From positions 1,708-65,707 of the forward strand of contig CAYRND010000001.1 of assembly GCA_964425365.1 (NCBI GenBank): a DNA stretch of 64,000 bases. Reading direction: 5' to 3'. This document shows, piece after piece, positions 4,626 to 47,220 of the stretch. Both the position numbers and the translations under genes were made by a program. This DNA is from an uncultured Phycisphaeraceae bacterium. Lineage in GTDB: Bacteria; Planctomycetota; Phycisphaerae; Phycisphaerales; Phycisphaeraceae. The notes beneath the pieces are model-generated. The model was not told the DNA's origin, did no database searches, and saw only the letters and a program-made list of their open reading frames with translations. Every line of letters starts with the position of its first letter. The first letter of the stretch is position 1.

Positions 4626-4910
4626 TCAGTGTATATTCGCCATTGCGATCAGCAGGTAGCCCGTCAATGCCGTGACCAGGAGAATTGTGGCGAAGAGTAT
4701 ACCGAGTTCGATGCTGATGATGATCTGACGGCGTTTGAGCTTTCGCCAGGCACGATCGACCTGCTCGGGAGAGAGCCATTTACCGTTAAAGAGCAGTTTG
4801 CCCTCGCGACCGGCGCGTTCCCGCCAGGTGTTAACGGCGTTCTCCCGACTCTGCCGGAGTCGTCGGCCGAGTTCATCGGTCAGCTTTTCATGGTCAGTCA
4901 TCAGGTACAT
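4626..4910 (-). CDS. Small tail-anchored membrane protein, function unknown
   Basis: 94 aa, with a charged N-terminal half and one C-terminal TM helix (IIISIELGILFATILLVTALTGYLLIAM). It is the last gene of the long minus-strand block. Confidence 0.45.
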   Translation of the reverse strand: MYLMTDHEKLTDELGRRLRQSRENAVNTWRERAGREGKLLFNGKWLSPEQVDRAWRKLKRRQIIISIELGILFATILLVTALTGYLLIAMANIH

Positions 4911-4925
4911 GGTCCGCGTGTCCGT

Positions 4926-5168
4926 TCAGATGTGCAGGATCATATTAAAGAGGATGAAGTTGAGCAGCACGGCGGCGACTGAGATGAGTCCGGCCAGCAG
5001 CAGGCCGCCGAGATACTGCAGCGGCCGACTCATGCGGATGAGCGGCAGTCGCCGGGTATCGGGAACCTTACCCTGCTGGATCAGTTCCTGTTCGAACTGT
5101 TCTGCGGCGAGCAGTTGCTGCTCTAATTCGAGACGTCTTATCCGGCTGTCGGTATCGTAATCGGGCAT
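4926..5168 (-). CDS. Small tail-anchored membrane protein with an N-terminal coiled-coil-like segment, function unknown
   Basis: 80 aa. RIRRLELEQQLLAAEQFEQELIQQ is followed by the TM segment LQYLGGLLLAGLISVAAVLLNFILF. Its ATG shares one nucleotide with the TGA of the upstream Wzz-like gene (TGATG at 5170-5166). Confidence 0.5.
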   Translation of the reverse strand: MPDYDTDSRIRRLELEQQLLAAEQFEQELIQQGKVPDTRRLPLIRMSRPLQYLGGLLLAGLISVAAVLLNFILFNMILHI

Positions 5169-6598
5169 CAGGAAACACCTGTGAGTTCGCGGCTGGTTTC
5201 GCCTTGCGTTATCTGATTCGTACGGTGGCGTGATCGCAGCTCCTGTATCAGGGCCGTTCGCCTGCGCGTTTCATGATGCTCCAGTGTGAGCACATAAAGC
5301 ACACCCGCGAGCAGGCCGATCACACCGGCGATCAGGACGTTGAGTACGGTAAGCGGGAACACCGGCCGGCGAGGTACGGCCGCAGGTCTGATGACCAGCC
5401 CCGTCGTTTTCATCTGCAGTGAACTGGTGATCAGACGATCGCGAGCGGTTTCGAGTGATTGTCGCAGCATCTTTTTTTGCATGATCCGGTCTTCGAGGTT
5501 TTCGAGCTCGGCCAGGATGCCTGGTACTTTTCGGACAATCCCTTCGGTGACTTTAATGGCTTTTTCCAAGCCCTCGATACGAGCCTGTACACCTGACAGC
5601 TCGACTTTGTACATCATGAGGTTTTCTCTGAGATCGTCATAGAGGGACCCGGTGGTTTTGGATTTACTGCCGACGACCTGGCTCATATGCCTTGCGAGTG
5701 CTTCCTGAGCCCGGCTGTAGCGATGTTGAAGAGAAATCATGTAAGGATGGTCCGGGCTGAGCATGACCTGCTGGCCGGCGATTTCGACTTCGAGCAGATT
5801 GAGCCGTTCCTGCAGCGCTTCGGTCACGGGGTCCTGCAGAATCATTTCACCTTCGAGATACGCCTTGGATTCTTCATCGAGCTGGTCGGTCAGGTTCTTA
5901 ATCCGCTGCTGGTAGGCGCCCTTGTCCATCGCAAGCTGGTCGAGCTGTTTGTGGAAATCGGCTTTTCGCTCTTCGAGCTTTTCGATCATGACCTCGGGGG
6001 AAGCAATGTGATGGCCCTCGCAGAACTGCTTTTTCGATCCGGTAAGCGATTCGATATCGGCGTTGACCTCCTTCAACTGGTTGTTGAGATTCGCCATAGC
6101 GGCGTTCAGATCGTTCTGAATGACATTCTGGTGAAATTCGTTGAATATTTCGATGATCATATTGACGACCTTGGCTGCCAGTTCAGGGTTATGATCCCGT
6201 GCATAGATACGAATAAGCCCTTCTCGCGTCGCGGTGATATCAATGGCGGTTCGGAAGTGCTTAGCCTGTTCCTCGGGCAGGCGGGCGACGACCTGGCGGA
6301 CGGCGTTTGATTCCTGGAGGACGGCGGCGAAGGTACGTGCATGCGCCTGTACGCCGGAGGGCAGTCTGGCCTTGAGATCGGCGATATCGGTTGCATCGTG
6401 TACATCCTGTGGTACGTAGAAGACACCTCTCGCCTCGTATTGCGGCCTGATGGCGAGGCTGATGACACCACTGAGCACTGCGGCGGTAATGGTCATGAAC
6501 AGTATCATTCCACGCCGCCGGTAGAGGGCGGAGGTGTAATCTTCGAGCCGGTACTCGAAGGGAACGGTTTCGGTCGTATCAGTGGTTTTGTTGTTCAT
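5168..6598 (-). CDS. Polysaccharide chain-length determinant (Wzz/GumC-like PCP, no kinase domain)
   Basis: An N-terminal TM (MILFMTITAAVLSGVISLAI), a long coiled-coil periplasmic region and a C-terminal TM (VLNVLIAGVIGLLAGVLYVL). I prefer the start MNNKTT at 6598 over the track start at 6649. It could belong to the PEP-CTERM-locus chain-length subfamily; this was not tested. Confidence 0.75.
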   Translation of the reverse strand: MNNKTTDTTETVPFEYRLEDYTSALYRRRGMILFMTITAAVLSGVISLAIRPQYEARGVFYVPQDVHDATDIADLKARLPSGVQAHARTFAAVLQESNAVRQVVARLPEEQAKHFRTAIDITATREGLIRIYARDHNPELAAKVVNMIIEIFNEFHQNVIQNDLNAAMANLNNQLKEVNADIESLTGSKKQFCEGHHIASPEVMIEKLEERKADFHKQLDQLAMDKGAYQQRIKNLTDQLDEESKAYLEGEMILQDPVTEALQERLNLLEVEIAGQQVMLSPDHPYMISLQHRYSRAQEALARHMSQVVGSKSKTTGSLYDDLRENLMMYKVELSGVQARIEGLEKAIKVTEGIVRKVPGILAELENLEDRIMQKKMLRQSLETARDRLITSSLQMKTTGLVIRPAAVPRRPVFPLTVLNVLIAGVIGLLAGVLYVLTLEHHETRRRTALIQELRSRHRTNQITQGETSRELTGVS

Positions 6599-8036
6599 AG
6601 TCAATACCGTTTCTTTTCGCCAAGGCATGGAACACGCAGAGGGAGCCACCTGCCATACCCATATACAGCCATGAGACGAAGTTATCGTAAGCGGGTTCGA
6701 AGCACAGGTGAATTGCCAGCGCGGTCATGGCGAGGAACATGGCTTTGCAGGTTGCTTTGGTACGCGTATCAGGTGACCGCAGAGCACGGATCGCCAAAGC
6801 GGCGGTTAGGTAAATAACGAGTGATGCGAGCGTCGCGCCTGCGACGACGCCCATTTCGGCGGCGGTCTGGAGGTAGGCGTTATGGACGGGTGTGGGCAGT
6901 ACCCGGCCGACATTTCTCAGGCCTAGCCCGAACAGGGGATGGGTCCGGATGGCTTCCAGGCCCACGCGGATGAATTCGATCCGGTCGCCGTAGCCCCGGC
7001 CGCCGATGGCGAGCACCACATGTTGAATGAGCCAGTCCATCCCACCGGTAATGAAGAGAACGAGTCCGAGCAGTGCGATGGCGGCGGAATATTGCAAGGC
7101 GTATTGCGGCCTGTGCATATACAGGCCGACAAGCAGTACGGCCGCGGCGGTCAGGTAGGCGCCGATACTGAAGGTCATACCGATTGCCGCCAGCAGTGCG
7201 AGGCAGGACAGTATTCGTGTGTGCCGGGCCATGTCGGCAAAGAGTGTCAGGCCGAGTGCCAGCAGCATGAGATGTGCGAAGCTCTGCGGCGTAGTCATGA
7301 ACCCGGTGACGCGTAGCATCATGCCGAACGGCGTTTGCTTGTGATGAAATTCCGCGGCGTCATCGAAGGTGAACTCGATACCGGTGGCGAGGTAGAGGCA
7401 CTCACTGAAGATACCCACTGCGGCGGCGACCAAGGCAATATAGAGAAAGCACCTGACGGCAAAGCGTTGTCTGTCCGCCGTATTGATCAGGTTCGTTACG
7501 AGGAACATGACCATAATTTTGCTGAGCATCTGATGCTGGGTGATGATACTGATCATCAGGCCGTTGATGATGGACGCCAGCGAGCAGGCGGCCAGTACGG
7601 CGAGCATGATCATGATGGTGATGTCGGTGGCGATGCGTCGGTGTTCGATCAGCATGACCGCGATCCAGAACGACAGTACTATGAGGAACGCCAGATCGGT
7701 CGGATCGAGCCGACTTATATTGACTCCGGAGATGGCACCGGCGAAGATGAGCAGTGCGATGGCGATATTGAATCGATGTCGGAACAGTTCATATTGATAT
7801 CGTAGGCAGGTATAAGCGGCGAGTATGACAAAAATGACAGCGGCGGTAACGGCGGCGAGTCCGCTGTTGAAACCTGTTCCGAACAGTGTCAGGTGATATT
7901 GCACGGCGGTCATGGGGCCGAGCGTGATAGCGGCGGCGATGGCGGTTGTCACGATAAATGCGAAAACCGCATCGCGTGAGGTCAACGTGCCGAAGCCTCG
8001 TGTTTCGGGATGCGTATGATTGGCTGTCACTTCCAA
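6579..8036 (-). CDS. O-antigen ligase / Wzy-type polymerase family membrane protein
   Basis: 485 aa and polytopic (10 or more hydrophobic helices). It has a Wzy_C-like loop ..GLGLRNVGRVLPTPVHNAYLQTAAEMGVVAG... Confidence 0.75.
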   Translation of the reverse strand: MEVTANHTHPETRGFGTLTSRDAVFAFIVTTAIAAAITLGPMTAVQYHLTLFGTGFNSGLAAVTAAVIFVILAAYTCLRYQYELFRHRFNIAIALLIFAGAISGVNISRLDPTDLAFLIVLSFWIAVMLIEHRRIATDITIMIMLAVLAACSLASIINGLMISIITQHQMLSKIMVMFLVTNLINTADRQRFAVRCFLYIALVAAAVGIFSECLYLATGIEFTFDDAAEFHHKQTPFGMMLRVTGFMTTPQSFAHLMLLALGLTLFADMARHTRILSCLALLAAIGMTFSIGAYLTAAAVLLVGLYMHRPQYALQYSAAIALLGLVLFITGGMDWLIQHVVLAIGGRGYGDRIEFIRVGLEAIRTHPLFGLGLRNVGRVLPTPVHNAYLQTAAEMGVVAGATLASLVIYLTAALAIRALRSPDTRTKATCKAMFLAMTALAIHLCFEPAYDNFVSWLYMGMAGGSLCVFHALAKRNGIDYEQQNH

Positions 8037-8101
8037 CTACCTGATTGACGGTGTCAATAACACTATGCAAAAACCGTCGCCGCAGTTCGGCCGGGTTTCG
8101 A

Positions 8102-9289
8102 TCAATCGCAGGCAGGCTCCACACCGGTATGCCGGCTGCGTTTGCAGTTCAAAGCGAGTTCGTACAGGAACTTATCATATTTTACAATCATCCGGTCGAC
8201 ATTGAAACAGGCGAGTGCCCGTCTGCAGCCCTCGTTGCCCATTTTTCTGGCGGATTCGGGATCCCGGATCATACGGCCGAGGGCATCGGCAATTGCCTGA
8301 GGATCACGTGGCGGGACGAGCAGGCCGGTTTTTCCCTCCTGTACGACTTCGGGGATACCATCGACGCGAGTGGCGACGATGGGCAGGTTCCTCGACATGG
8401 CTTCCACCAGAACCATGCCGAAGCTTTCCCAGAGTGAAGCGAGGCAGAATATATCAAGTCCCCACATGAGTCGTGTCACATCGTTTCGCCAGCCGGTGAA
8501 GATGACGGAGGATGTGATGCCCAGGTTGTCAGCGTGTGTTTCCAGTTCAGGTTTAAGCGGGCCGTCGCCCATGATTACGAACCGTAGGTCATTCCGGTTC
8601 CGGCAGAGGATAGCGGCTGCTTCGAGCAGGTAGCTTAATCCTTTCTGCGTTTCACAACGTCCGGCGGTGCCGATGACAATGTCGGTCTCTTCGAGTCCGA
8701 GTTCACGTCGGATGGCGCGTCGGTCGGCCGGCTCGGCCTGATCGATTTCGACTGAGTTGTAAATGACATCGACCTTGTCGGGTTTCATGATGCCTGTGTT
8801 TCGGCCGTATTCCTTCATTGCGTTCGATACGGCCACGTACTTCGTGGTGGGCAGGTCCATTGCGCGTTCGATCCAGTGATAGATGATTCGCGTGAGCCAT
8901 ATCTGATTGGGATGGGAAGCGTAGACCTGAAGGATCATGACGCGAACAGGCACGCCGGTAAGCCATGCTGCAACGCGACCGAGCAGGCCGGCGATGGAGC
9001 ATTCCATACAGACCATCTGGAATCGCTCCTGCTTCATCAGTCGGCAGATTTCGAAGAACCCTCTGATGTTGGTCAGTGGGTTCAGTTTTCTTGACATGGT
9101 GAGTATATGAACGGGGATATCAAGCTGTTTGAACTGGTCGTCAAGTACGTAGCCGGGGCTGAACGCGGCGGTAAGCTCGAACCGGTCCCGCGGCAGATAT
9201 CGTGCCAGGTAATACGCATGGAGTCCAGCGCCGCCGGCGGTACTGGTAATCAGTAGTAACGTTTTAATTGTCTGCTTTCTCTCTTCCAC
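8102..9289 (-). CDS. Glycosyltransferase, GT4 (GT-B fold)
   Basis: N-terminal ITSTAGGAGLHAY, and the C-terminal EX7E region ESFGMVLVEAMSRNLPIVATRVDGIPEVVQEGKTGLLV. Confidence 0.85.
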   Translation of the reverse strand: MEERKQTIKTLLLITSTAGGAGLHAYYLARYLPRDRFELTAAFSPGYVLDDQFKQLDIPVHILTMSRKLNPLTNIRGFFEICRLMKQERFQMVCMECSIAGLLGRVAAWLTGVPVRVMILQVYASHPNQIWLTRIIYHWIERAMDLPTTKYVAVSNAMKEYGRNTGIMKPDKVDVIYNSVEIDQAEPADRRAIRRELGLEETDIVIGTAGRCETQKGLSYLLEAAAILCRNRNDLRFVIMGDGPLKPELETHADNLGITSSVIFTGWRNDVTRLMWGLDIFCLASLWESFGMVLVEAMSRNLPIVATRVDGIPEVVQEGKTGLLVPPRDPQAIADALGRMIRDPESARKMGNEGCRRALACFNVDRMIVKYDKFLYELALNCKRSRHTGVEPACD

Positions 9290-9295: not shown

Positions 9296-10513
9296 TTACA
9301 CCTGTTTCGGGTTTGGTTGTCTGTGGTTCTGAATTAGATTCCGGTAAAGATAATCGAGTCGTTCGCCGAGCAACTGTCCGCTGCAATGTCTGCGAACGAA
9401 ACTCGGGCCATCTGCGAGAGCGTTTACGTGCAGATTCGTATTGTCGAGTGCCTTCGCCAGCGTATTGGCGAGAGGCACTATTTCGGGCGTATCAATGAGC
9501 AGGCCGGTCTGATCGTGTTGTATCAGTTCAGGGATGCCGCCGGTCCGCGTCGCAACGACGGCGACGCCGGTAGCGAGTGCCTCGATAACCACAACGCCGC
9601 AAGGCTCGCCCCAGACGGAAGGTACGGCAACGACTCGCGAACGTTGGTAGAACCCAGGCAGCTCCGAATGCGTTATTGTACCACAGAACCGTACATTTCG
9701 ACCGAGATTCAGATGTTTAACGCAATTCTTGCACTGGTTGATATACGAGCCGTGTTCAGTGCCGCCCGTTTCCGGTCCGATGATATGGAGTTTGATTTCA
9801 GGCCGGTCCTGGGCGAGTATACCAATCGCCTTGATCAGTTCCATGACGCCCTTTTCGGCTGCAATACGTCCGACGAAGAGGATATCGATCTCCTTTCGGC
9901 AATTCCTGTCGGGCTTGAAAAGCTGTAGATCAACGACATTAGGGATAATACTTATCCGTGATGAATCAAATTTGTGGTGGTTTTGGATAGCGTCATGGAT
10001 AAAGCGGCTGATGGCGACGAGGTGATCGGTATGGGTAGCGATGAACCGGTCGACGACTCTGCCGCAGGCTGCCGCTGCCCACCGCAGTCCGAATGCGGGG
10101 TAAGCCATTGCTTCGGCCGCTTTCCAGTTATGCACGTGGTAGACGTTGATCCAGGGGTCACGTCGGAACAACCCTGTCGCCGTCATCAGGAGACAGGGGT
10201 AGCGGTAATGATGATGCACGATATCGGGTTTCAGGTCACTGCATTGTTTTCGGGCGAGACGGCTGAATGTATAGACGTTTTTCAGCATGGCGGTCATGCT
10301 TGTACAGCGGTGGCTTTCACCTGTCAGTTGATGATAGGTAGCGTTTTCGTGATTGCGAGTTCGCGTGGTATTGTCAGGTGCGACGGTCATGACATGTATG
10401 TCGTGTCCGCGTTCGGCCAATGCGCGTATCTGTTCACGGACCTGCGATTCGATACCGCCGGTGGTGTACTCCGGTAGTGAATGCAGGTTGGTTGATACGA
10501 TACAAATTCGCAT
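9296..10513 (-). CDS. Glycosyltransferase, GT4 (GT-B fold)
   Basis: MRICIVSTN..TTGGIESQV, and GEPCGVVVIEALATGVAVVATRTGGIPELIQHDQTGLLI. Confidence 0.85.
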   Translation of the reverse strand: MRICIVSTNLHSLPEYTTGGIESQVREQIRALAERGHDIHVMTVAPDNTTRTRNHENATYHQLTGESHRCTSMTAMLKNVYTFSRLARKQCSDLKPDIVHHHYRYPCLLMTATGLFRRDPWINVYHVHNWKAAEAMAYPAFGLRWAAAACGRVVDRFIATHTDHLVAISRFIHDAIQNHHKFDSSRISIIPNVVDLQLFKPDRNCRKEIDILFVGRIAAEKGVMELIKAIGILAQDRPEIKLHIIGPETGGTEHGSYINQCKNCVKHLNLGRNVRFCGTITHSELPGFYQRSRVVAVPSVWGEPCGVVVIEALATGVAVVATRTGGIPELIQHDQTGLLIDTPEIVPLANTLAKALDNTNLHVNALADGPSFVRRHCSGQLLGERLDYLYRNLIQNHRQPNPKQV

Positions 10514-10525: not shown

Positions 10526-11596
10526 TCAGGGGGTATCGGTCATGGCGATGTTCGCCCGTTCCGGTTGAAAGGTATTGTGATGAGGTATCCGTGTCAGGCC
10601 GGTGAGATACTTGATCTGTTTGCCCAGCCCATGCAGCCGTGCGAGCGTCAGGCCCTGTCTGACCGGGTGGTCGCGAGTGAGCCATCGGCAGAATCGGCCG
10701 GGGATCGAACAGTGAGTCAGTGCCGGCGGAGTTTCATTCAGTTCATCGAGGTATGAGCGTGCGGCGTGGTTATAAGGAGAGAGTTCGAAAGTCAGTTGAT
10801 TGTAATAAGCTCGCGGATTACCGCACCAGTTTGTCTGCGGCCGGACATCCCATATTTTCGGTTCCGCTCCGTGCAGGAGAGGCGGGACATGTTCGCGGCC
10901 GCACCGCCTGCGTTCGGTTGCCGTGAAGCCCGCCGGTCCGACACATTGAGCGATTTCACTGCCGCGTCGGATGGTATGAAGCGGGATATGGCTGAACGCT
11001 TTGGATCCGACCAGTGCGGTGAGAACATCCTGATCGCCCTGGAGGTGGATGGGTCTGACGGCCATCGGGTGGATCGTCTGCGCTTTGCGGTAACAGGGCA
11101 GTTCCAGCATTTCCCGCCAGGCCATCAGCAACTCGCGATGCGAGGGTGTCACGCGTATGACACCGCTGCTGAGTGTCGCCGTCAGTCGGCGCCCGACGTC
11201 GAGGCCCCACAGTTCCGTGCGGATGCTGCCCCCGGGATGGCGGTCCCAGTCCCATGCTTCCGAGACGACCAGATCCTGATCGTTTCGATTCGTGAAGAAT
11301 CTGCGGATATCACTTGTGAGGATGATATCGGAGTCGAGCCAGATCAGTTCATGATGTCCTTCGTCGAGCAGTCTGAGCAGCAGGCTGGGTTTGACATCCC
11401 AGCCGTGTGTGGTGAAGTCGGGATCATATCGCATGTCGGCATGTGGGAATCTGTTGAGCCATGACGTGAACCCGGGCGCCTTGGCCGGATAGCTGATCAG
11501 AACCTGCACGCCCGGGCAATGCCGGTTGATACTCAGTACGAGCAGTTTCATACCGAGCAATGCTTTCGGGCGGTTGTCGTAGGTGCAGATCAGCAT
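10526..11596 (-). CDS. Putative nucleotide-diphospho-sugar transferase (GT-A-like, GT8-like)
   Basis: A DxD-like motif WLDSDIILTSD, and an N-terminal Rossmann-like strand MLICTYDN. This is only a weak family assignment made by eye. Confidence 0.5.
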   Translation of the reverse strand: MLICTYDNRPKALLGMKLLVLSINRHCPGVQVLISYPAKAPGFTSWLNRFPHADMRYDPDFTTHGWDVKPSLLLRLLDEGHHELIWLDSDIILTSDIRRFFTNRNDQDLVVSEAWDWDRHPGGSIRTELWGLDVGRRLTATLSSGVIRVTPSHRELLMAWREMLELPCYRKAQTIHPMAVRPIHLQGDQDVLTALVGSKAFSHIPLHTIRRGSEIAQCVGPAGFTATERRRCGREHVPPLLHGAEPKIWDVRPQTNWCGNPRAYYNQLTFELSPYNHAARSYLDELNETPPALTHCSIPGRFCRWLTRDHPVRQGLTLARLHGLGKQIKYLTGLTRIPHHNTFQPERANIAMTDTP

Positions 11597-14165: not shown

Positions 14166-15031
14166 GGCATTGCGTGTACTCGTGTCATCAGCGATTCGAA
14201 CGCCGCCGGGGTACATTCGTAAAACGCCTCGAAGTATCCTCTGCCGCGTCCGAAATAGATCGATCGGTATGCAGACAGTCCTTCCATTGCACGGATGTAA
14301 TCAATTCGGCGGGTCTGGCTTTCGAAGCATGCGAGTGCCTCTCGCTTACGGTCGATCAGGTTGCCGATATCAATCAGTCTGTTGGCGTGCAGCGGCGACC
14401 AGACTTCGTATCCGCGAAGCAGGCAATTGTTTGTCCGGCTCAGGCCGGCAATGTGCAGGGCGGCGGCGAGAATGCGATTCGTCGTCCAGTGATCGTCATG
14501 GCTGTCCATGACGGACGGATGGTAGATCAGTTGCGGCTTGTGCTGTGAGAGCCACCGGGCCAGTGTCTGGATGTATTGTTCCGTGGGTGCCAGATTTCCG
14601 TCGGGTCCGTCGAGGAAAACCAGTTCGTTGATATCCATCACACGAGCTGCGTTGTGAGCTTCCTGTTTGCGGGTACGTATCAGTGCCTTTTCAGCCTGGT
14701 GGATGGCCGATTCGGCCAGGTTGGTTGTGTACAGGTCGGGATCGCCTTTCGATCCATCGGTCAGGTAGATGACGGTGACGGCCGCGCCGGCCTGCCGGTG
14801 ATGCATGACGGCGCCACCGCAGCCGATGGTTTCGTCATCCATATGCGGCGCGAGGACAAGTACGGTATTCGCATGGAATTGAGAGATCATAACGGGCGGC
14901 TTATCGCGTTCATCGAGCAGCAGAGCCAGCCGGATATGGTTCTTAACGCCCCGCGGCACGAGCGTGCGGTAAGTTAATCGAACCAGGATTCGCAGCAGTC
15001 GTTTCATCGTCTTTTCGTGGTCATCTATCAA
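14162..15031 (-). CDS. PIG-L / LmbE family N-acetyl-sugar deacetylase
   Basis: VLAPHMDDETIGCGGAV (the AHPDDE-type metal site), and a second motif SVMDSHDDHWTT (HxDH). Confidence 0.8.
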   Translation of the reverse strand: MIDDHEKTMKRLLRILVRLTYRTLVPRGVKNHIRLALLLDERDKPPVMISQFHANTVLVLAPHMDDETIGCGGAVMHHRQAGAAVTVIYLTDGSKGDPDLYTTNLAESAIHQAEKALIRTRKQEAHNAARVMDINELVFLDGPDGNLAPTEQYIQTLARWLSQHKPQLIYHPSVMDSHDDHWTTNRILAAALHIAGLSRTNNCLLRGYEVWSPLHANRLIDIGNLIDRKREALACFESQTRRIDYIRAMEGLSAYRSIYFGRGRGYFEAFYECTPAAFESLMTRVHAMP

Positions 15032-40000: not shown

Positions 40001-40783
40001 GTAAACCGGCCCGGTCAGCCAGTCTCGCTGCCAGAGCGTGAAGTCGGCGTACTGGATCGGAAGGGGTTCCAGTGGCGACGGGCGGTTCCGGACATAGGCG
40101 TCGTATAGTTGTTTCAGCTCATTCACCAGGATACCGAGAGACCAGCCGTCGGCGACGATATGATGGATCGATAAGAGGAACCAGTGTTCCTCCGGCTTCA
40201 GCTTCAGGAGCTTCGCCCGCAGCAGAGGTGTGCGTGTCAGGTCGAACGGAATCAAATATTCCTGCCGTGCGATTTCATTGCCTCGTCGCTCTCGCTCGTC
40301 GTCGGGCAGGTTACTCAGATCGATCAGCTCCAGCTTGAGCTGGATACTGACCTCGATGCGTTGAACGGATTCTCCGTTCAATTGCTCGAAGCAGGTTCGC
40401 AGTGACTCATGGCGGCGAATCACTTCGTTCAGACTTCGCTCGAGTGCCGCGATATTCAGCGTTCCGTGCAGGCGAAGCGCCCTGAGCATATTGTAGTGAT
40501 GACTGTTCGGAATAAGCTGATCGAGGAACCAGAGCCGCTGCTGGGCATAACTGAGCGGTACCGGCCGGGTACGTGATACGGCTTTGATCGGACCGGACCC
40601 TGACGATTGCATACGCTGCGCCGCCCGGAGGAATTGGATGATCGCCTCCTTATGCATGACGATCTCGCCGCGAAGCGAGTCCGTCATGACATTCGCCGGG
40701 GCATCGAATTGCAAACGATCATCATTTAATCGCAGACGAATATCCAGTTCGCGTAACCTGGACAGTAAATCCGATACACTCAT
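34100..40783 (-). CDS. NRPS, two modules: TubC-like N-terminal docking domain-C-A-T-C-A-T
   Basis: Docking domain MSVSDLLSRLRELDIRLRLNDDRLQFDAPANVM. C motifs HHIVADGWS and HHIIIDGWS. A motifs YLIYTSGSTGQPKGI and YVMYTSGSMGKPKGV. T motifs GGHSL and GGNSL. ATGA overlap with the upstream NRPS. Confidence 0.95.
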   Translation of the reverse strand: MSVSDLLSRLRELDIRLRLNDDRLQFDAPANVMTDSLRGEIVMHKEAIIQFLRAAQRMQSSGSGPIKAVSRTRPVPLSYAQQRLWFLDQLIPNSHHYNMLRALRLHGTLNIAALERSLNEVIRRHESLRTCFEQLNGESVQRIEVSIQLKLELIDLSNLPDDERERRGNEIARQEYLIPFDLTRTPLLRAKLLKLKPEEHWFLLSIHHIVADGWSLGILVNELKQLYDAYVRNRPSPLEPLPIQYADFTLWQRDWLTGPVYQEQLDYWKQKLAGFAALQLPTDHPRPAIQTYNGNHKKIEFSESMTQALHAFTRQEHVTLFMVLISAFYILLHRYSGQDDIVIGSPIANRNRSEIERLIGFFVNTLPLRCDLSGDPGFRELLSRMRDNVMKAYEYQDIPFEKLVEAIQPERDMSRNPLFQVMLVLQNQGVDTFEFTGLTVGHLPVPNTTSKFDLLFSLEEHEGCLLGVMEYNTDLYNDDTIQRMLGHYEQILTHVLASPTSPISQIRLLTESEEHVLLHEWNATACKHGGDQVIHRMFERSVLSNPDAVAVEYQGTSLSYRRLNELANDLAIELRASGAGPDVPVAIMLNRSLEMVISVLAVLKAGSAYVALDPSYPASRLSFTMSDTGAGIMLSESSLSHVRPAGDYQTILVDGRADNDAPGSDTGPEDITRAEHAAYLIYTSGSTGQPKGIVMSHGALCNLLHWQLSQTTSGVKAKTLQFASLGFDVSFQEIFSTWCGGGTLVVIPESLRLDMVALLKLIDTASVQRLFVPFIALLHLAEEAVYNDVYPESLREIITAGEQLQITPPIAAWFEKLGDCTLHNQYGPSESHVVTSYTLTGSPSTWPLLPPIGRPIDNARMYILDPQRRPVPVGVPGELYIGGTCLARGYLNRIDLTSEKFIADPFSTDPGSRLYRSGDLVHYLPDGNIQFLGRLDTQVKIRGFRIELSEIESVLSLHPAVKAVAVIAREFSPGDKRLVAYVTCHNPDDWPGVAELREFLQDKLPEYMLPSAFVQMDELPLSTNNKVDRQALPSPDRNTISDVKGYVAPTGMIETRLAEIWKSVMKLDRAGAHNNFFESGGHSLDAIRLISRVNQAFQVNYPLQAFFDNPTISAMAGQIEDLQRESRSSHQAPQLTTIDRESQLPLSFAQQRLWLLDQMEPGKAGYCIPLPVRLRGRLHVPVLEKALNELVSRHEVFRTRIIPDEGRPHQQIENSAVVNIKQTDLSALPPRDQDAALQSAYQEAAQTAFDLSQCPLFRIHLIQLADDEHILIIIFHHIIIDGWSLGVFVDELGDLYESYLDDHASPLEPLPIQYVDYAYWQRQYLRDQMLQQHVDYWKHRLGAEPPVLNLLTDRPRPSTVTYCGSGHRLPLSASLSDSLRQMSQRESVTLFTTLFTAFAVLLHRYSGQDDFVIGSPIAGRTRIETEKLIGFFVNMLPLRTDLSGEPTFHELLQRNQRMVSSSFDYQAMPFEKLIDELKLERDMSRNPLFQVTFALQNAPFKPLQLKGLEIGPVEMPYKTARYDIEVHVWERDGILVPVFIYNTDLFDSTTIQRMLEHYRVLLENIVSEPDRRISELSMLSDRDRHEILTSWSRNDVDYPRDASIQSLFEAQVEQYPSSIALVHNERRITYEQLNARSNQIAHRLIEQGVEQDTLVAFYMDRGPEMIAAMLGILKAGGAYVPLDMSYPAERLSFMISDTGVKVILTDEAGIADLPEHSSTVFNLSDSRDLPGDYSTGNPEPRSSGGDLAYVMYTSGSMGKPKGVMIHHRGVVRLANQPDYIELGPTACIPQLSNSSFDASTFEIWGALLTGCKLVLIDKEMLLSSQLFLDCIKREKINTMFLTTSVFNLFAKESTSILSAVDQVIFGGEAADPKWVRHALAKKPTGRLVNGYGPTECTTFACCFQVNSVPEGARSIPIGRPIANTSAYVLDARQAPVPVGVTGELYLGGDGLARGYLNRPELTAERFVPNPFSRSENDNLLYRTGDLVRWLPSGDLDYLGRHDEQVKVRGYRIELEEIRSVLCNHEQIADSVVILREDVPNDKRLVGYVVAKAGENPDMISLRDYLKKKLPDYMIPSALMPVEHIPLTPNGKVDRRALPAPAGLDPIKGGFVEPKTVLEKQLVDIWRDILRIDHIGLNDNFFDMGGNSLLIVRLRSRVAAVLKLDIPVVDLFRNPTIRSLVDYLGNDKEADARTEQEQKQAVVKTIDEGRDRLRNRLIKSRAVSTRRE

Positions 40784-43700
40784 AATTCACCACTTTCCCG
40801 GTCTGATGATGACACTGCATCGTCCAGTGCCGTTACTGATGTTCTGCCGGCCCAATAGACCATCTCGATCAATTTCGCCTGCTCGGCGATCGTGGCATGC
40901 TCGAACATGCTGCTTAACGGTAATTCCACACCCAGCTCCTGACGCAGGCGGCTGACCACACGTGTGGCCAGTAAGGAATGGCCGCCTATTTCAAAGAAAC
41001 GCTCGTATATCCCGACGGTTTTCATCCCGAGGACTGCACGCCAGATCGAAGCAATGCGTTCTTCAAGCTCATTGCGAGGCGGGACCAGTTTGTCTTCCGG
41101 CAGGCTGCGAAGTTCCGGTTTCGGCAGCTTGCGTCGATCGACCTTGCCGTTCGGTGACAGCGGCAGTTCATCCATGGGTACCAGTACGGGTGGTACCATA
41201 TAGTCCGGCAATTTGCATTGCAGGTATGTCCTGATCTGTTCCAGGTCGGCCGTTTCGCCATTGAATGGGACAATATAGCCGATCAGACGTTTATCACCCG
41301 GTTCGCGTTCATGAACGTTGACCACCGCCTCACGCACGTTTTCGTGTGACGCCAGAACCGATTCAATTTCGCCCAGTTCAATGCGGAACCCCCGGATTTT
41401 CACCTGGTCGTCTCGCCGACCGCCGAATTCCAGGTTGCCGTCACCGAGCAGGCGAACGATATCACCCGTTCGATAAAGGCAGGCGTCTTGATCATTACTG
41501 AAAGGATTTCGAACGAATCGTTCGGCTGTCAACTCCGGCCGGTTCAAATAGCCGGCCGCCAGGCCGTCGCCGCCGATGTATAATTCGCCCCAGACCCCTT
41601 CAGGGACCAGGTTCATGTGAGTGTCCATGACGTACGCGGTGGTGTTCGGGATCAGCCGGCCGATGGGGATCGAATTGAGCGGGACCGGCAGGTTTGCAGG
41701 AATGCGGTAACAGCAGGTGAAGGTCGTATTTTCCGTCGGGCCGTATCCGTTAATGAGCCGGACGCCCGGCAGATCTGCTAAACCCTGCCGGATATGCGGT
41801 ACCGACAGCGCCTCACCACCCGTTAACAGCTGCTTCAATCCTCGCAGCACTTCCGGTGATTCGCCGATCAGCAGGTTGAATAACGAGGACGTCAGCCACA
41901 TCGTACTCACACGTTCACGCGTAATCACTTCACCCAGTTCACGGGCGCTCGGGACCGCAGACGGGAATAGCACGCAGCGGCCGCCGTTAAGCAGCGATCC
42001 CCAGATCTCGAATGTGGAGGCGTCAAAGGAGATCGGCGCCAGTTGTAACAACACCTCGTCGGTGCCGAGCTCAACGTAATCAACGTTCGTTACCAGGCGG
42101 ACGACGCCACGGTGGCGGACCATGACACCCTTCGGCCGGCCGGTTGAGCCCGAGGTATACATGATGTACGCCAGGTCAGTCGGTTCGGTATCAATACCGG
42201 GATTGGAAACGGGCATCGACGATAAATCCATGTCATCGCCGTCCAGGCAGACCGGTTGGGAAGCGGATGCAGGAATACCGTCGCACAGCGATCGATGGGA
42301 AAGGATAATCGGCGTACGCGTATCTTCCAGCATGAACGACAGTCGCTGCGACGGGTAGCTCGGGTCAAGCGGTACGTACGCGCCACCGGCTTTGAGAATG
42401 GCCAGTATTGATACGATCACGTCGATACTGCGATGCATGTACAGGCCGACGAGATCGCCCCGGACGATACCCCTGCCGATCAGCCAATGTGCCAACTGGT
42501 TTGCTCGTTCATTCAACGCCTTGTACGTGATCCGCTCGTTGCCCCATACCAACGCGATCGATTCCGGCGACTGTTTCGCATGGTCTTCGAACAGGGTGTG
42601 AATACAACGGTTCCGCGGATAGGAATAAGCCCGGCCGTTCCAATCAACGAGTTGCCGGGTACGCTCTTCGGGGCTTAACAGGCTCAGCTCCGAAACGTGA
42701 CGATCGTCATTGCTGATCATGTCGGCCAGGATGGATTGATAATGACCCGCCATCCGTTCGACCGTCGAACGATCGAATAAGTCCGTGTTGTATTCCCAGA
42801 CGATCGAAAATCCATCCGAGTCGCCCGCGTGTTTTCCGAACCGTTGTGAAGTATGCGGAACAACGATGATCGTCATGTCGAATTTAGACGAGCCGTTATT
42901 CAAGCCCAGTGTCAGCTCGCCGGTCAGGCCCGAGTGGGTACCCTGTGGCATGGGTGCGTCATGCAGTCCGAACATGACCTGGAACAGCGGGTTGTAACTG
43001 ATATTCCGCTCGGGTTGAACCGCTTCCACCACGCGATCGAACGGGACGTCCTGGTTCGCATACGCCTCGACTGAAATCCGGCGGATCTGCTTCATGAGTT
43101 CACGGATCGTCGGATTATTCGATACATCGCATCGCAGGACCACGTTATTGATGATCATGCCGATCAACGATTCCATTTCGGACAGGCGGCGATTTGCCAT
43201 GCCCGTGCCGATATTGATATCCGTCTGGCCGCTGTATCGATAAAACAACGCAGCCAGGCCGGCCAGCAGGATCATGAACTGCGTGTTATCGCTCCGTCGA
43301 CTATAGTCACAGATCATGCGGCTCAGTTTGGAAGGTAAATCAAATCGCATTGCCGCGCCGTTGAAAGTCTGGACCGACTGGCGAGGCCGATCGTAAGGCA
43401 GCTCCAGCAGCGGCGAGGCGCCTGAGAGCTGTCTTCGCCAGTATGACAACTGCTGATCGGCCTGCTCACTTTCGGACCACGTTCGCTGCCAATGTGAAAA
43501 ATCAGCGAATTGGATCGCCGGCTCCGGCAGGCACGAGTCCCGGCCGGCCTGGTACGATTCATACAGGGATAATAACTCGCCTAGGAATACGTTGATCGAC
43601 CAGCCGTCATGCACCAGATGGTGCTCGATGTGTAATAATTCGTAATCGTCATCGCCATGCTGAAGCAGCATCCAGCGGATCAGGTACAGTCGTTCGATGT

Positions 43701-46700
43701 CGAAGGGCCGGCGTATTTCCCGCTCGATGATCGCGTCAGCACGCCGCCTTGTGCCTCCTTCGCCGCCATCCGATCTCAGGTCAATCACGTCAAGAGTGAT
43801 CGGCTGGGGATCATGTATGACCTGGACGGTTCGGCCGTCTGTAAGCGTTTTGAATGTCGTGCGGTAGATCTCGTGACGACGGATGATTTCATTGAGGCTT
43901 CTTTCGAGTGCATGAATATTCAGGTTGCCATGCAGACGGATCGTCGCCTGGAAGTTGTATGCGATAGTGCCCGGGTCCAACTGGTGAATGAAGCAGACGC
44001 GTTCCTGGGCAGACGAAACCGGCAGATTCTCGCGACGCTCAACATGCTCGATGACCGACGGCCGCGCTCGCCCGGCCGGGGTGGTCGGCAGTTCAATACA
44101 CTCGGCAAGTTCACGAAGTGATCGGCTGTCGAATATCCGGTCGATCGTAAGTTCCGCATTGTATCGATCGTGAAGTCTGGCGATAATCTGAACGGCGTGG
44201 AGAGAATGGCCGCCCAGTGCGTGAAAATTGTCCGTTGCACTGGCGCGATCGATCCCCAGCACTTCCTGCCACAGGTCCGCCAGCACCTTTTCTTCCCGTG
44301 TTCGGGGCGGGACATACATTCCGTCATCATCATGTTCGCGGCCGCTGGAAGGCGCGGGTAGCGATTTTCGGTCGACTTTGCCGTTCGGCGTCAGCGGCAG
44401 CGAACCGAGAAATAAAAATTTCGATGGAATCATATACCCGGGCAGCATGGTGCGTAAATGATCGCAAAGCATCGCTTCGTCCGGTTCCCCGCCGTCGTGC
44501 AGGACCACGTAACCGACCAGGCGTTTATCGCCTGGTTCATCTTCACGCAGCATGACGAACGTTTCACTCACCGACGGATGTTCCGACAGGACTGATTCGA
44601 TTTCACCCAGCTCGATTCGAAATCCCCGCAGCTTGACCTGGCTGTCGAGCCGGCCGAGGAATACCAGTGTTCCGTCATCTCGCCGTCGGACAAGATCGCC
44701 TGTGCGATACAGACATGATTCGCCGTTACGATCAAACGGATTGGTAACGAACTTTTCTCGTGTCAGCTCATCGTGGCCGAGGTAACCCAGTGCCAGGCCG
44801 TCGCCGCCGATGTATAATTCGCCCGGCTCGCCCGGGGCCACCGGCCGCTTATTACGATCGAGCACGTAGATACGCGTGTTCGCGATCGCCCGGCCGATCG
44901 GAACGGTCCAGGCATCCGCCGGTACCGATTTCACCTCGTACCAGGAGGTGAAAGTCGTATTCTCCGTCGGGCCGTAGACATGAAGCAGTCGCACCGGCCC
45001 GTTCTCATCAAGTACACGCCGAACCCATTGCGGATCGACCTGTTCGCCGCCGAAGAGCACATGCGATACATTCGCAATCGCACCCGGCGACTGCTTCGCC
45101 AGGACATTGAAAAGCGCCGTTGTCAGAAACAGTACTGTAACGCCGTCCGACTTCAGACGTTCGGCCAGTCGCGGCGGTGAAAGCACCGTTTCGCGATCAA
45201 GTACCACCAGCGTGGCTCCGGAAAGCAGGGCGCTCCATATCTCGAAGGTCGAGGCGTCGAACGAACAGTTCGACACATGCGCGACGCGATCCGATGCTGT
45301 CAGTGACAGGTAATCCGTGTCACAGACCAGGCGGACGATCCCGCGATGCGGGATCATCACACCCTTGGGCTGACCTGTTGAGCCGGAGGTGTACATGACA
45401 TAAGCAAGGTCATCGCCGCCGGTCGGGGTTTCGGGGTTATCAGTCGGCATGCTGTCAAGTGGCTCATCAGACCGGGCGAGATCGATCACCTGGACCCCGG
45501 GTCCCGCCGGTATGGCCGGGAGCGACCCGTCTGTGATAAGTACGCTGCAGCCGGAATCCGCCAGCATGTACGCCAGTCGATGTTCAGGATACCCGGGGTC
45601 CAGCGGCACGTAGGCGGCGCCCGCTTTGAGGATGCCCAGGATCGCGACAATCATCTCGATCGAACGGTCAAGATGGACGCAGACCAGTGATCCGCGACTC
45701 ACACCCGATGTCATCAGGTAATGTGCCAGACGGTTCGCCCGTTCGTTCAACGCACCGTATGTGTCATACCGCTCACCGTCGACGACAGCGATTGCTTCAG
45801 GTTTCGCGGCGGTGCAGCGTTCGAACAGCGAATGGACACCGGATTTACGTGGATAGTCAGTCGTCTCGCCGCTCCATGCGTCCTTGATCAACCTTCGCTG
45901 TGATTCATCAATTAAAGTCAACTCGTCAACGGCACTTGAAGGTGACGCAACTGCCTGTTCAAGTACATACAGATACTGTCGCATGAAGCGCCGGGCTGTT
46001 TCGTTATCAAACAGCTCGTGTGAGTAGACCATTGAAACTGTGTAACGGCAGCCGTCATCACGGACGTCCAGCACCAGGTCATGACTCAGCGGATAGTAGT
46101 CATGGTGTAGAACCTCGATTGTAAGTTCTACGGAATCATAGCGTCGGACAAGGTCACCGGTTCCGCAGCGGATCGTAACGTTCGGCATTCCACCGGCGGT
46201 GCGATTTTCGATACCGGCCGGTTGCCGGATGAAACGTTCGATCAGGTCATTGACTGTTGTATGGTCATGGAAGTCCGCACAGACGATCTGCTCTTGATCG
46301 CCCGCCATCCACGCGGGCTCGCCTGCCGGATCGAAGGGCGATTCCGATACCATCCCGAACGATAATGATTCCGACGGATCCAGGTGATGGCACCACGCGG
46401 CCAGTGCCGCCGCGAATACCGCTGAGTCGGGGACGTGTATTTTCTGCATACGGCTTCTGATCCGATCCGACATCAGTTCATCAAGACGGCGGCAGATCAG
46501 CGAGCCTTGGCCGCTGCCCGGCACCGGCCGGATGCGGTCGCGTGGCAGACGGATCAGCTCGGCGGCGGTTAATTCCTCCGGTATCGCCGGGCGCGTGTCG
46601 TCCGAGACAACCTCAGATCTGCTTTCATCGCCCGGGTGGTAAGGATATGTATATCGTTCACCCGCTTCCTCGGCCGCGTAACAGGCAAATAGTTCGTTCG

Positions 46701-47220
46701 TCAATGACACAAGCGACCGAGCGGAGCAGCATATGGCGTGTGACGTGAGCAGCAGAATATGGTCATGAGTTCCCAGTTCGATCAGTGTCGGTCGAATCAG
46801 CGGCCCGCGTGACAAGTCGAACTCACGCCGGACGTGATCCGCAATGAGCTGATCCAATTTCTCCCGGTTGTTCTGTTTGACCAGGGCGACCTTCTCAAGT
46901 ACTGGAGCGGCATCCACGCCGCGTTTACGAACAGGACTGCCAGCCTTCTCGATGAACGCCATGCGAAGCCGGGGGGTATGGCCGCACAGGACGTGCAGTG
47001 CGCGAGCAAGTGAATCTGTTTTCAGTTCACCTGTGATATGAACGGCAAAGTGATTGTGAAGTCTGATATCGCCCGGGTCCATTTGCTCGCGATACCAGAT
47101 CGACTGCTCCGCATGAGAGAGTATACCGGCGAACTCATCGGTTACAGGATTGATATCAGTATCCGCATTATCTGTGACAATTGATCTGCTGCCGGATTCG
47201 GGAGATACACCCATGACCAT
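40780..47220 (-). CDS. NRPS, loading plus one elongation module: degenerate starter C-like domain-A-T-C-A-T
   Basis: The N-terminal region of about 430 aa has a C-domain fold, but the active-site motif reads SHAICCS (aa 160-166, nt 46743-46723) instead of HHxxxDG. This is followed by A (YVMYTSGSTGQPKGV), T (GGHSL), C (HHLVHDGWS), A (YIMYTSGSTGRPKGV) and T (GGHSL). The C-terminal tail is acidic: ..SSDRESGEL. Confidence 0.95.
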   Translation of the reverse strand: MVMGVSPESGSRSIVTDNADTDINPVTDEFAGILSHAEQSIWYREQMDPGDIRLHNHFAVHITGELKTDSLARALHVLCGHTPRLRMAFIEKAGSPVRKRGVDAAPVLEKVALVKQNNREKLDQLIADHVRREFDLSRGPLIRPTLIELGTHDHILLLTSHAICCSARSLVSLTNELFACYAAEEAGERYTYPYHPGDESRSEVVSDDTRPAIPEELTAAELIRLPRDRIRPVPGSGQGSLICRRLDELMSDRIRSRMQKIHVPDSAVFAAALAAWCHHLDPSESLSFGMVSESPFDPAGEPAWMAGDQEQIVCADFHDHTTVNDLIERFIRQPAGIENRTAGGMPNVTIRCGTGDLVRRYDSVELTIEVLHHDYYPLSHDLVLDVRDDGCRYTVSMVYSHELFDNETARRFMRQYLYVLEQAVASPSSAVDELTLIDESQRRLIKDAWSGETTDYPRKSGVHSLFERCTAAKPEAIAVVDGERYDTYGALNERANRLAHYLMTSGVSRGSLVCVHLDRSIEMIVAILGILKAGAAYVPLDPGYPEHRLAYMLADSGCSVLITDGSLPAIPAGPGVQVIDLARSDEPLDSMPTDNPETPTGGDDLAYVMYTSGSTGQPKGVMIPHRGIVRLVCDTDYLSLTASDRVAHVSNCSFDASTFEIWSALLSGATLVVLDRETVLSPPRLAERLKSDGVTVLFLTTALFNVLAKQSPGAIANVSHVLFGGEQVDPQWVRRVLDENGPVRLLHVYGPTENTTFTSWYEVKSVPADAWTVPIGRAIANTRIYVLDRNKRPVAPGEPGELYIGGDGLALGYLGHDELTREKFVTNPFDRNGESCLYRTGDLVRRRDDGTLVFLGRLDSQVKLRGFRIELGEIESVLSEHPSVSETFVMLREDEPGDKRLVGYVVLHDGGEPDEAMLCDHLRTMLPGYMIPSKFLFLGSLPLTPNGKVDRKSLPAPSSGREHDDDGMYVPPRTREEKVLADLWQEVLGIDRASATDNFHALGGHSLHAVQIIARLHDRYNAELTIDRIFDSRSLRELAECIELPTTPAGRARPSVIEHVERRENLPVSSAQERVCFIHQLDPGTIAYNFQATIRLHGNLNIHALERSLNEIIRRHEIYRTTFKTLTDGRTVQVIHDPQPITLDVIDLRSDGGEGGTRRRADAIIEREIRRPFDIERLYLIRWMLLQHGDDDYELLHIEHHLVHDGWSINVFLGELLSLYESYQAGRDSCLPEPAIQFADFSHWQRTWSESEQADQQLSYWRRQLSGASPLLELPYDRPRQSVQTFNGAAMRFDLPSKLSRMICDYSRRSDNTQFMILLAGLAALFYRYSGQTDINIGTGMANRRLSEMESLIGMIINNVVLRCDVSNNPTIRELMKQIRRISVEAYANQDVPFDRVVEAVQPERNISYNPLFQVMFGLHDAPMPQGTHSGLTGELTLGLNNGSSKFDMTIIVVPHTSQRFGKHAGDSDGFSIVWEYNTDLFDRSTVERMAGHYQSILADMISNDDRHVSELSLLSPEERTRQLVDWNGRAYSYPRNRCIHTLFEDHAKQSPESIALVWGNERITYKALNERANQLAHWLIGRGIVRGDLVGLYMHRSIDVIVSILAILKAGGAYVPLDPSYPSQRLSFMLEDTRTPIILSHRSLCDGIPASASQPVCLDGDDMDLSSMPVSNPGIDTEPTDLAYIMYTSGSTGRPKGVMVRHRGVVRLVTNVDYVELGTDEVLLQLAPISFDASTFEIWGSLLNGGRCVLFPSAVPSARELGEVITRERVSTMWLTSSLFNLLIGESPEVLRGLKQLLTGGEALSVPHIRQGLADLPGVRLINGYGPTENTTFTCCYRIPANLPVPLNSIPIGRLIPNTTAYVMDTHMNLVPEGVWGELYIGGDGLAAGYLNRPELTAERFVRNPFSNDQDACLYRTGDIVRLLGDGNLEFGGRRDDQVKIRGFRIELGEIESVLASHENVREAVVNVHEREPGDKRLIGYIVPFNGETADLEQIRTYLQCKLPDYMVPPVLVPMDELPLSPNGKVDRRKLPKPELRSLPEDKLVPPRNELEERIASIWRAVLGMKTVGIYERFFEIGGHSLLATRVVSRLRQELGVELPLSSMFEHATIAEQAKLIEMVYWAGRTSVTALDDAVSSSDRESGEL

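Follow-up and report, generated by a model that had tools for sequence, protein, structure and literature searches.

The locus described here raises the question of whether a single run of genes, which combines a nonribosomal peptide synthetase–polyketide synthase (NRPS-PKS) assembly line with the machinery of a surface glycan, makes one product or two. It occupies the minus strand from position 47220 to position 4626 of the window, that is, of the whole stretch of 64,000 nucleotides (64 kb) of an uncultured Phycisphaeraceae bacterium that was analysed. From gene context we infer that the block may well be one composite unit for a surface glycan bearing a peptide/polyketide, or for a glycolipopeptide, a reading to which a little less than an even chance is given. 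The original prediction had likewise proposed a single joint product, and that proposal stands as the best reading of the locus, since the composite gene order recurs across phyla, although the argument still runs from gene context.

The ORF listing and a reading of the junctions bear out the predicted minus-strand train from 47220 to 4626. It consists of 21 open reading frames (ORFs) that follow one another back to back and uninterrupted, and the 24 genes counted originally are reached only when three co-directional genes upstream (47608-50875; a GH36 alpha-galactosidase, DUF6941 and RpiB) are added. Each of the seven stop/start overlaps that had been listed is real: six are of the ATGA type (40780-40783, 28501-28504, 16889-16892, 15846-15849, 14162-14165 and 12906-12909) and the one at 5168 is TGATG. 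The other junctions range from an overlap of 62 nt to a gap of 65 nt, the largest inside the train, which separates the genes of glycosyltransferase GT4d and of the Wzy_C-family protein. The sole large intergenic gap, also as predicted, lies 5' of NRPS 1 (47221-47607, 387 nt, assigned to no strand) and is a candidate promoter region, in which neither a sigma-70 promoter consensus nor a terminator consensus was detected. Internal promoters and terminators were rejected as evidence, given that their match counts in the block do not exceed the shuffled expectation. At its 3' end the block is bounded by a plus-strand tRNA-Gly (4213-4284), followed by a cobalamin riboswitch that heads the PEP-CTERM genes. 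Pfam and NCBIfam confirm the annotations of four megasynthases, two alpha/beta hydrolases, a GH39 protein, a type II thioesterase (TEII), a phosphopantetheinyl transferase (PPTase), an ABC ATPase with an ABC-2 permease, a PIG-L protein, and Wzy_C and Wzz proteins. As for the five predicted glycosyltransferases, four are GT4 enzymes and the fifth has no Pfam match, its homologues being annotated as nucleotide-diphospho-sugar transferases. The analysis supports the view that peptide-polyketide and glycan genes are interleaved in one compact co-directional unit, and this compactness (21 ORFs, seven stop/start overlaps, no gap above 65 nt) argues for a joint product.

The composite arrangement was traced in other genomes, where an alignment of hydrolase 1 was scanned against genome contigs and the ORFs were labelled by BLAST; the scan returned 80 loci in at least ten phyla (individual loci are designated by L and a number). 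The order NRPS/PKS, hydrolase 2, hydrolase 1, GH39, type II thioesterase, PPTase, ABC-2 exporter, PIG-L and glycosyltransferases recurs at only 39-50% protein identity. It is present in L083/L084, L081/L082, L004, L041 and L091, and partially in L095, L098 and L100, with 33-50% identity across phyla, and its carriers include a member of the Phycisphaeraceae (L004), a metagenome-assembled genome of the Ectothiorhodospiraceae (L041) and several unassigned contigs. Under the refuting condition that the original prediction had set, homologous loci in which the two halves are never linked, the outcome favours linkage. L083/L084 (47% identity in hydrolase 1) encodes, in this order, NRPS, hydrolase 2, hydrolase 1, GH39, TEII, PPTase, an NTP-transferase~Bac_transf fusion, Poly_export, ABC, ABC-2, PIG-L and GT4; L081/L082 (50% identity) encodes NRPS, hydrolase 2, hydrolase 1, TEII, PPTase, the Bac_transf fusion and ABC; and L091, which was found via GH39, encodes TEII, PPTase, Bac_transf, ABC, ABC-2, GH39, GT4b, GT4, GT-A and GT9. 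In L095, L098 and L100 the GH39 gene adjoins those for TEII and PPTase, with hydrolase 1 in L095 and L100 and hydrolase 2 in L095. Synteny conserved at such low identity in distant lineages argues for a joint product, and so does the contrast between assembly lines that vary from one syntenic locus to another and a release and glycan part that is conserved. The idea that two unrelated clusters came to lie side by side by accident is highly improbable: both modules are indeed found separately elsewhere, but at least five independent loci of different phyla keep the order at 33-50% identity, and junctions overlap across the supposed boundary, as in the ATGA shared by the PPTase and ABC genes.

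The peptide half begins with four megasynthases. NRPS 1 (40780-47220, 2146 aa) has a degenerate C-like domain followed by A-T-C-A-T (Pfam Condensation, AMP-binding and PP-binding), while NRPS 2 (34100-40783, 2227 aa), whose start overlaps the NRPS 1 stop in an ATGA, has a TubC_N docking domain followed by C-A-T-C-A-T (Pfam). The PKS module (28501-34095, 1864 aa) reads KS-AT-psiKR-KR-DH-ACP from its Pfam coordinates, and NRPS 3 (21836-28504, 2222 aa) again has a TubC_N docking domain before C-A-T-C-A-T (Pfam and motif map). Core motifs are present in the PKS (KS Cys in SACSTS and the His motifs, GHSIGE in the AT, HxxxGxxxxP in the DH), and this is a modular type I NRPS-PKS line in which C, A, T, KS, AT, KR, DH and ACP are all found, with a PPTase in the block. 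It amounts to six NRPS modules and one PKS module without a release domain; NRPS 3 finishes in PP-binding at aa 2144, neither a TE nor an R nor a terminal C domain being present at its end, and Thioesterase and NAD_binding_4 gave no match. The placing of the DH after the KR is unlike that of canonical cis-AT modules, and further hydrolase-pair loci, such as L051, L058, L064 and L076, have PKS ORFs with KS, AT, KR and DH matches.

The N-terminal C-like domain of NRPS 1 (aa 1-450, 45870-47220) carries SHAICCS instead of HHxxxDG. It is no obvious lipo-initiation starter C domain, and no lipid starter was found, there being no FAAL nearby and no active starter C domain. The A-domain codes, for which a GrsA fragment served as template, are leads only: DAFFLGV.. 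and DAFWLGG.. in NRPS 1 (hydrophobic, Ile/Val-like), DVQFIAQV. (Pro-like) and DAFFIGGTF (Val/Ile-like) in NRPS 2, and DAFWLGGTF and DAFFLGVTF in NRPS 3. The chain predicted from these leads would be very hydrophobic, roughly Ile/Val-Val-Pro-Val/Ile-[C2 ketide]-Val-Ile. By the same template, the terminal A domain has a Gly-like code, DILQLG(M/L)(I/V)W or DILALGMVW, in 20 of the 35 hydrolase-pair loci (among L001-L087) that have such a domain near hydrolase 2, and the code DAFFLGVTF in the window, L002 and L083; most lines associated with the hydrolase pair may end in glycine.

How such a chain leaves the line is the point at which the two hydrolases enter the argument. Hydrolase 2 (20965-21813), the proposed adaptor in the thioesterase position, and hydrolase 1 (20027-20989), which may serve as transacylase or release enzyme, have adjacent genes that share 25 nt. 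Their nearest curated NCBIfam families are the exosortase-A-associated TIGR03101 (hydr2_PEP; 89.1 bits against a cutoff of 202.75) and TIGR03100 (hydr1_PEP; 116.2 bits against 168.45), and pairs from L047, L059, L011, L083 and L071 score in the same sub-threshold range. True membership of these families was rejected on the scores. Among the 80 loci, 65 have a megasynthase and 73 have hydrolase 2, and the pair usually stands immediately 3' of an ORF with a T domain at its end. Nine loci carry hydrolase 2 as a direct fusion to the last T domain, at the site that a thioesterase domain would take, and three loci of Myxococcota have the two hydrolases fused to each other. The joint-product reading draws on this, for the pair marks the termini of carrier proteins while its nearest curated families belong to polysaccharide loci. 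The line had been described as TE-less, and there is indeed no thioesterase domain in cis, but elsewhere the hydrolase pair takes that position; a widespread, putative release module in two parts, hydrolase 2 and hydrolase 1, thus accounts for the TE-less state. An exhaustive profile search of the hydrolase 2 family gave 5,012 representative clusters (50% identity, E<=1e-30) from many phyla, among them forms of ~600 aa (the pair fusion) and of ~1,360-1,400 aa (C-A-T~hydrolase 2).

The active sites of the two proteins, which are paralogues, differ. In 85 sequences the nucleophile elbow of hydrolase 1, G-x-C-S-G, has Cys in 98% and His271 is present in 100%; the scan pattern included CSGA, which biased the 80 loci toward Cys, and the residue is also invariant in a 25-sequence alignment that was not selected by pattern. 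The elbow of hydrolase 2, G-x-R-x-G, has Arg in 100% of 76 sequences, without a conserved His. In profile alignments to solved esterases the Cys of hydrolase 1 falls on the nucleophile Ser of 9pjb and 8b4u, and the Arg of hydrolase 2 on that of 9pjb; a protein named 'exosortase A-associated hydrolase 2' by JGI (P0255, alignment A2) likewise carries Arg. This pairing of a Cys and an Arg at the position of the nucleophile Ser is a further argument for the joint product. The AF2 models show an alpha/beta fold with a four-helix cap for hydrolase 1 (pLDDT 84) and an alpha/beta fold for hydrolase 2 (pLDDT 87.6). Foldseek matched both to generic esterases and lipases only (TM 0.5-0.7), with no close structural relative, and for that reason no function was transferred from the fold search.

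It is possible, if on balance doubtful, that hydrolase 2 and hydrolase 1 act as a two-component off-loading module, in which an Arg-elbow pseudo-hydrolase would serve as adaptor and a Cys-His-Asp transacylase would aminolyse the thioester with the amine of a de-N-acetylated sugar, or with some other amine, making surface glycans anchored by a peptide or acyl chain, and that the same chemistry operates in the exosortase A cassette of ligase, ACP, decarboxylase and hydrolases. Searches of the open-access literature turned up no functional study of the TIGR03100 and TIGR03101 hydrolases, TIGR03100 being found there only as an annotation label, and none on TE-less release by hydrolases or on exosortase together with NRPS; nor did they yield a description of an NRPS-polysaccharide composite like the present one. 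Hybrid NRPS-saccharide clusters and glycolipopeptides are already known; against that background the novelty lies in the two-part Cys/Arg release module and in the way it is repeatedly coupled with ABC-dependent glycan genes.

The glycan half starts with a DrrA-like ABC transporter ATPase (15846-16892; ABC_tran, TIGR01188 248 bits) and an ABC-2 permease (15046-15849; ABC2_membrane), followed by a PIG-L family de-N-acetylase (14162-15031; PF02585 101 bits, best NCBIfam match BshB1 at 89 bits). Next come the glycosyltransferases: GT4a (12906-14165), which overlaps the PIG-L gene in an ATGA and is closest to BshA (NCBIfam, 99 bits), GT4b (11590-12909), a GT-A-like nucleotide-diphospho-sugar transferase (10526-11596), GT4c (9296-10513) and the stp2-like GT4d (8102-9289; TIGR03088 181 bits against a cutoff of 409). 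The four GT4 enzymes were assigned by Pfam, while the GT-A-like protein, which matches neither Pfam nor NCBIfam, has a DSD motif and 135 homologues, several of them named nucleotide-diphospho-sugar transferase. The half ends with a polytopic membrane protein of the Wzy_C family (6579-8036; PF04932 39.6 bits against a cutoff of 31.7), which may be a polymerase or a WaaL-type ligase, and a Wzz/PCP-like chain-length protein without a kinase domain (5168-6649; PF02706 31.6 bits, TIGR03007 pepcterm_ChnLen 81 bits against 279). Pfam Wzy_C also takes in WaaL ligases and O-oligosaccharyltransferases. Two conserved tail-anchored membrane proteins, whose small ORFs are genuine, close the train, one of 80 aa (4926-5168), whose homologues lie directly 3' of Wzz in L086, L087 and L094, and one of 94 aa (4626-4910), whose homologues follow the 80-aa gene there. 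Such a pair of small proteins (~80 and 95-100 aa, with a C-terminal membrane helix) always follows the Wzz-like gene (window 4626-5168, minus strand; L086 6980-7579; L087 8760-9358; L094 13299-13881); it is unnamed and has motifs such as 'PDTR...ILFN.ILHI' and 'LF.G.WL'.

This half had been called a Wzy-type pathway, a label that does not fit well. No ORF of the block matches Polysacc_synt, MurJ or MatE, as a Wzx flippase would, and tblastn with the L083 Bac_transf fusion and Poly_export as queries found neither a priming phosphoglycosyl transferase nor a Wza-type outer-membrane exporter (OPX) in the 64-kb window; a clean Wzx/Wzy assignment was rejected on these grounds. The ABC-2 pair, in turn, tracks the glycan half. 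Related loci have orthologues of the ATPase (328-411 bits) in their glycan half, and syntenic loci have orthologues of the permease (243-322 bits); orthologous pairs of the two stand inside the glycan half of L083, L085, L091 and L094, and in L085 the pair is there with neither TEII nor PPTase immediately upstream. PIG-L is conserved in L004, L083, L085, L092 and L094, and GT4b has orthologues (291-365 bits) in L041, L085, L086, L087, L091 and L094. Syntenic relatives carry Bac_transf and Poly_export between the PPTase and the ABC pair, and a fusion of sugar-1-phosphate nucleotidyltransferase (NTP_transferase/LbH) with Bac_transf heads the glycan half in L083 (14626-16533), L081 (12831-14591) and L085 (1806-3599). 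Judged by its gene content, the glycan half looks like an ABC-transporter-dependent, O-antigen-like or capsule-like system with a membrane protein of the WaaL/Wzy_C family, because the ABC-2 pair stays with it even without adjacent TEII and PPTase genes (L085) and because of the Wzy_C (WaaL-family) protein, the kinase-less Wzz, and the GT9 and OPX genes of relatives.

The same inventory bears on a second reading, in which no polysaccharide is made and the product is a small glycolipopeptide: a peptide-ketide aglycone, released or tethered, would be glycosylated stepwise in the cytoplasm by the GT4 and GT-A enzymes, tailored by PIG-L and exported by the ABC-2 pair, in the manner of mycobacterial glycopeptidolipids or heterocyst glycolipids. 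The lack of a priming transferase, flippase and Poly_export in the window agrees with this, as do the adjacent GT4a and PIG-L genes, which resemble BshA and BshB, enzymes of small acceptors, and the lipid-like peptide predicted from the A-domain codes. Set against it are the syntenic relatives that have Bac_transf and Poly_export in the cluster, and the Wzy_C, Wzz-like and PslG-like GH39 proteins, which point to a polymer handled in the periplasm, so that this reading appears distinctly unlikely.

Between the two halves lie three accessory genes. The GH39-like lipoprotein (18472-20088; Glyco_hydro_39, 56 bits) is a PslG-like glycan hydrolase with the lipobox LAGC and intact catalytic motifs, NEP and SEW, that are conserved in its orthologues. 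The type II thioesterase (17674-18462), an editing enzyme, matches Pfam Thioesterase with 153 bits, and the PPTase (16889-17698), of the Sfp/HetI type, matches Pfam ACPS and AASDHPPT_N, with a sub-threshold NCBIfam HetI score of 126 bits. A metagenome scan with the single GH39 protein gave no match, and an alignment-based scan returned loci. Eight close GH39 orthologues have readable flanks: four stand beside TEII plus PPTase or the hydrolase pair and four beside glycan genes, and the one in L091 is beside both. The GH39 gene links the two halves, because its orthologues adjoin TEII, PPTase or the hydrolase pair and/or glycan genes.

Taken together, these components suggest how a peptide-ketide and a glycan could be joined. 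Hydrolase 2 would dock on the terminal T domain and recruit hydrolase 1, an adaptor role suggested by the Arg in place of the nucleophile, by the lack of a catalytic His, and by its fusion behind the last T domain elsewhere. The Cys of hydrolase 1, in the probable triad Cys121-Asp238-His271, would then accept the hydrophobic peptidyl-ketide by transthioesterification and hand the chain over to an acceptor that is not water, most plausibly the free amine of a glucosamine (GlcN) that PIG-L would expose on a lipid-linked glycan assembled by the GT4 enzymes and the GT-A enzyme; GlcN is the candidate because the conserved PIG-L gene adjoins the BshA-like GT4. The conjugate would be exported or ligated by the ABC-2 pair, the Wzz-like protein and the Wzy_C protein, together with an outer-membrane exporter that would have to be encoded elsewhere, and GH39 would trim it in the periplasm.

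Several observations weigh against a joint product, and some of them are shared with a further alternative, in which one operon yields two products: a free linear or cyclic hydrophobic peptide-ketide, off-loaded through hydrolysis or cyclisation by hydrolase 1 and exported in DrrAB fashion, and an unrelated surface glycan, the linkage reflecting co-regulation, for example of a biofilm matrix and a surfactant. TEII, PPTase and a DrrAB-like ABC pair are ordinary accessories of NRPS lines. About 60% of the hydrolase-pair loci have no detectable glycan genes within 10 kb, and a glycan-type BLAST match was found in 16 of the 42 with at least 8 kb downstream. On the side of the joint product, polysaccharide families are still the commonest Pfam matches among 197 co-directional downstream ORFs from 45 such loci: Polysacc_synt (8), GT4 (5), GT2 (3), asparagine synthase (AsnB; 3), Poly_export (2) and Bac_transf (2). 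Each half, moreover, occurs without the other in some loci: L087, L092 and L094 are glycan-only within the sequence covered, L085 probably has no NRPS module, and in L003 the order NRPS, hydrolase 2, hydrolase 1 and GH39 gives way to housekeeping genes (IlvD). In L011 the hydrolase pair lies within a glycan cluster, beside a PEP_O_lig_1-like protein and without a megasynthase, which speaks for a link of the pair to polysaccharide loci. Two separate products are nevertheless rather unlikely. The ABC pair is orthologous to one that stands in a glycan half with no TEII or PPTase immediately upstream (L085), and no clean boundary can be drawn, since the priming transferase and Poly_export of relatives lie between PPTase and the ABC pair. 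In several lineages GH39 lies inside the segment of NRPS accessories, and the nearest curated families of the hydrolase pair were defined by polysaccharide loci.

The composite unit with a joint product has further points to answer. Neither the priming transferase nor the Poly_export protein, both of which relatives have within the cluster, is encoded in the 64-kb window; the acceptor of hydrolase 1 may also be water or an intramolecular nucleophile; the A-domain predictions are leads only; and the CSGA pattern of the contig scan tilts the 80 loci toward Cys.

Comparison with known systems places the block among several precedents. The exosortase A (XrtA/EpsH) cassette consists of hydr1_PEP (TIGR03100), hydr2_PEP (TIGR03101), an AMP-forming ligase (TIGR03098), a carrier protein and a PLP decarboxylase (TIGR03099). 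It shares with the block an adjacent, diverged alpha/beta-fold pair next to an adenylating enzyme and a carrier protein in a polysaccharide locus; in place of the ligase, ACP and decarboxylase, however, the block has a seven-module NRPS-PKS, and its pair scores below the cutoffs. No ORF of the window encodes exosortase A, the TIGR03098 ligase or the TIGR03099 decarboxylase. Mycobacterial glycopeptidolipid and other glycolipopeptide loci likewise unite NRPS, glycosyltransferases and a dedicated exporter in one locus, where one glycoconjugate is made. In the mycobacterial loci the chain is released by a reductase domain, the glycosyltransferases are of the GT1 family and export is by MmpL, whereas the block, which has no release domain, contains the Cys/Arg hydrolase pair, glycosyltransferases of the GT4 and GT-A types, an ABC-2 exporter, and proteins of the Wzy_C and Wzz kinds.

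Systems that first deacetylate and then N-acylate include the NodB/NodA/NodIJ lipochitooligosaccharides, the MshB and BshB thiol pathways, and the teicoplanin deacetylase with its acyltransferase. The block shares their logic in that its de-N-acetylase of the PIG-L/NodB type is encoded next to a GlcNAc transferase and a system of acyl carriers, and an ABC-2 exporter belongs to the set. The resemblance is one of logic only, for there is no NodA-, MshC- or BshC-type transferase in the block and the acyl group would come from a peptidyl-ketide bound to an NRPS T domain. With the Wzm/Wzt and WaaL O-antigen systems, KpsMTED capsules and Psl (PslG, GH39) it has in common the ABC-2 permease and ATPase, a PCP/Wzz-like protein, a Wzy_C (WaaL-family) protein and a GH39 enzyme in the operon, with Poly_export in relatives. 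Unlike the ABC-dependent glycan systems, the block is coupled to a megasynthase, has no detected Wzt carbohydrate-binding domain and no KpsS/C, and stands in a window without a priming transferase or OPX. Enzymes of the alpha/beta fold with a Cys nucleophile are PhaC, dienelactone hydrolase and the ObiF/SulM thioesterases. Like type I TE domains, the block's system places an alpha/beta fold after the last carrier domain, and, as in the Cys enzymes, a Cys nucleophile favours transfer over hydrolysis. It differs from type I TE domains in being two-part: at the thioesterase site stands a protein that has Arg instead of the nucleophile and is without the His, and the Cys belongs to a second, separate enzyme.

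The surroundings of the block complete the description of the locus. The PEP-CTERM neighbours, which the original prediction had taken to indicate an exosortase-type exopolysaccharide context, offer weak evidence for it, since they form a separate unit; they were rejected as part of the block, from which the opposite-strand tRNA-Gly and their own cobalamin riboswitch (RF00174, 64.7 bits; 3731-4005, minus strand) divide them. The exosortase flavour comes instead from the sub-threshold matches of the block itself, namely hydr1_PEP, hydr2_PEP, pepcterm_ChnLen and stp2. The riboswitch lies directly upstream of ORFs 3702-3046 and 3040-1811. Behind it, the ORF of 218 aa has a weak, sub-threshold PEP-CTERM match, and the ORF of 409 aa has a dockerin-like repeat and a PEP-CTERM-like tail read from its sequence; the two surface proteins may be B12-regulated, possibly B12-capturing, exosortase substrates. 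A further ORF (1012-1821, minus strand, 269 aa) has a prepilin-type N-terminal methylation motif and weakly matches the Verru_Chthon cassette protein D; together with the PEP-CTERM proteins it hints that the contig comes from the PVC superphylum. On the other side of the cluster, a plus-strand stretch (51909-61889) with a SNF2 helicase, a Bro-N protein, a Schlafen/AlbA_2 protein, an N6/N4 DNA methylase and RhuM looks like a defence or mobile island.

If the joint product is real, the locus would represent a class of surface glycoconjugates with a hydrophobic anchor or decoration built by an assembly line, for which the coupling enzymes can now be named, and genome-mining tools that handle 'NRPS' and 'saccharide' regions apart would mis-split such clusters. 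Independently of the joint product, the Cys/Arg pair offers a testable function for the 'exosortase A-associated hydrolases 1 and 2', and it may account for product release by NRPS/PKS lines without a thioesterase, of which there are thousands in uncultured Acidobacteriota, Planctomycetota, Chloroflexota, Myxococcota and other groups.

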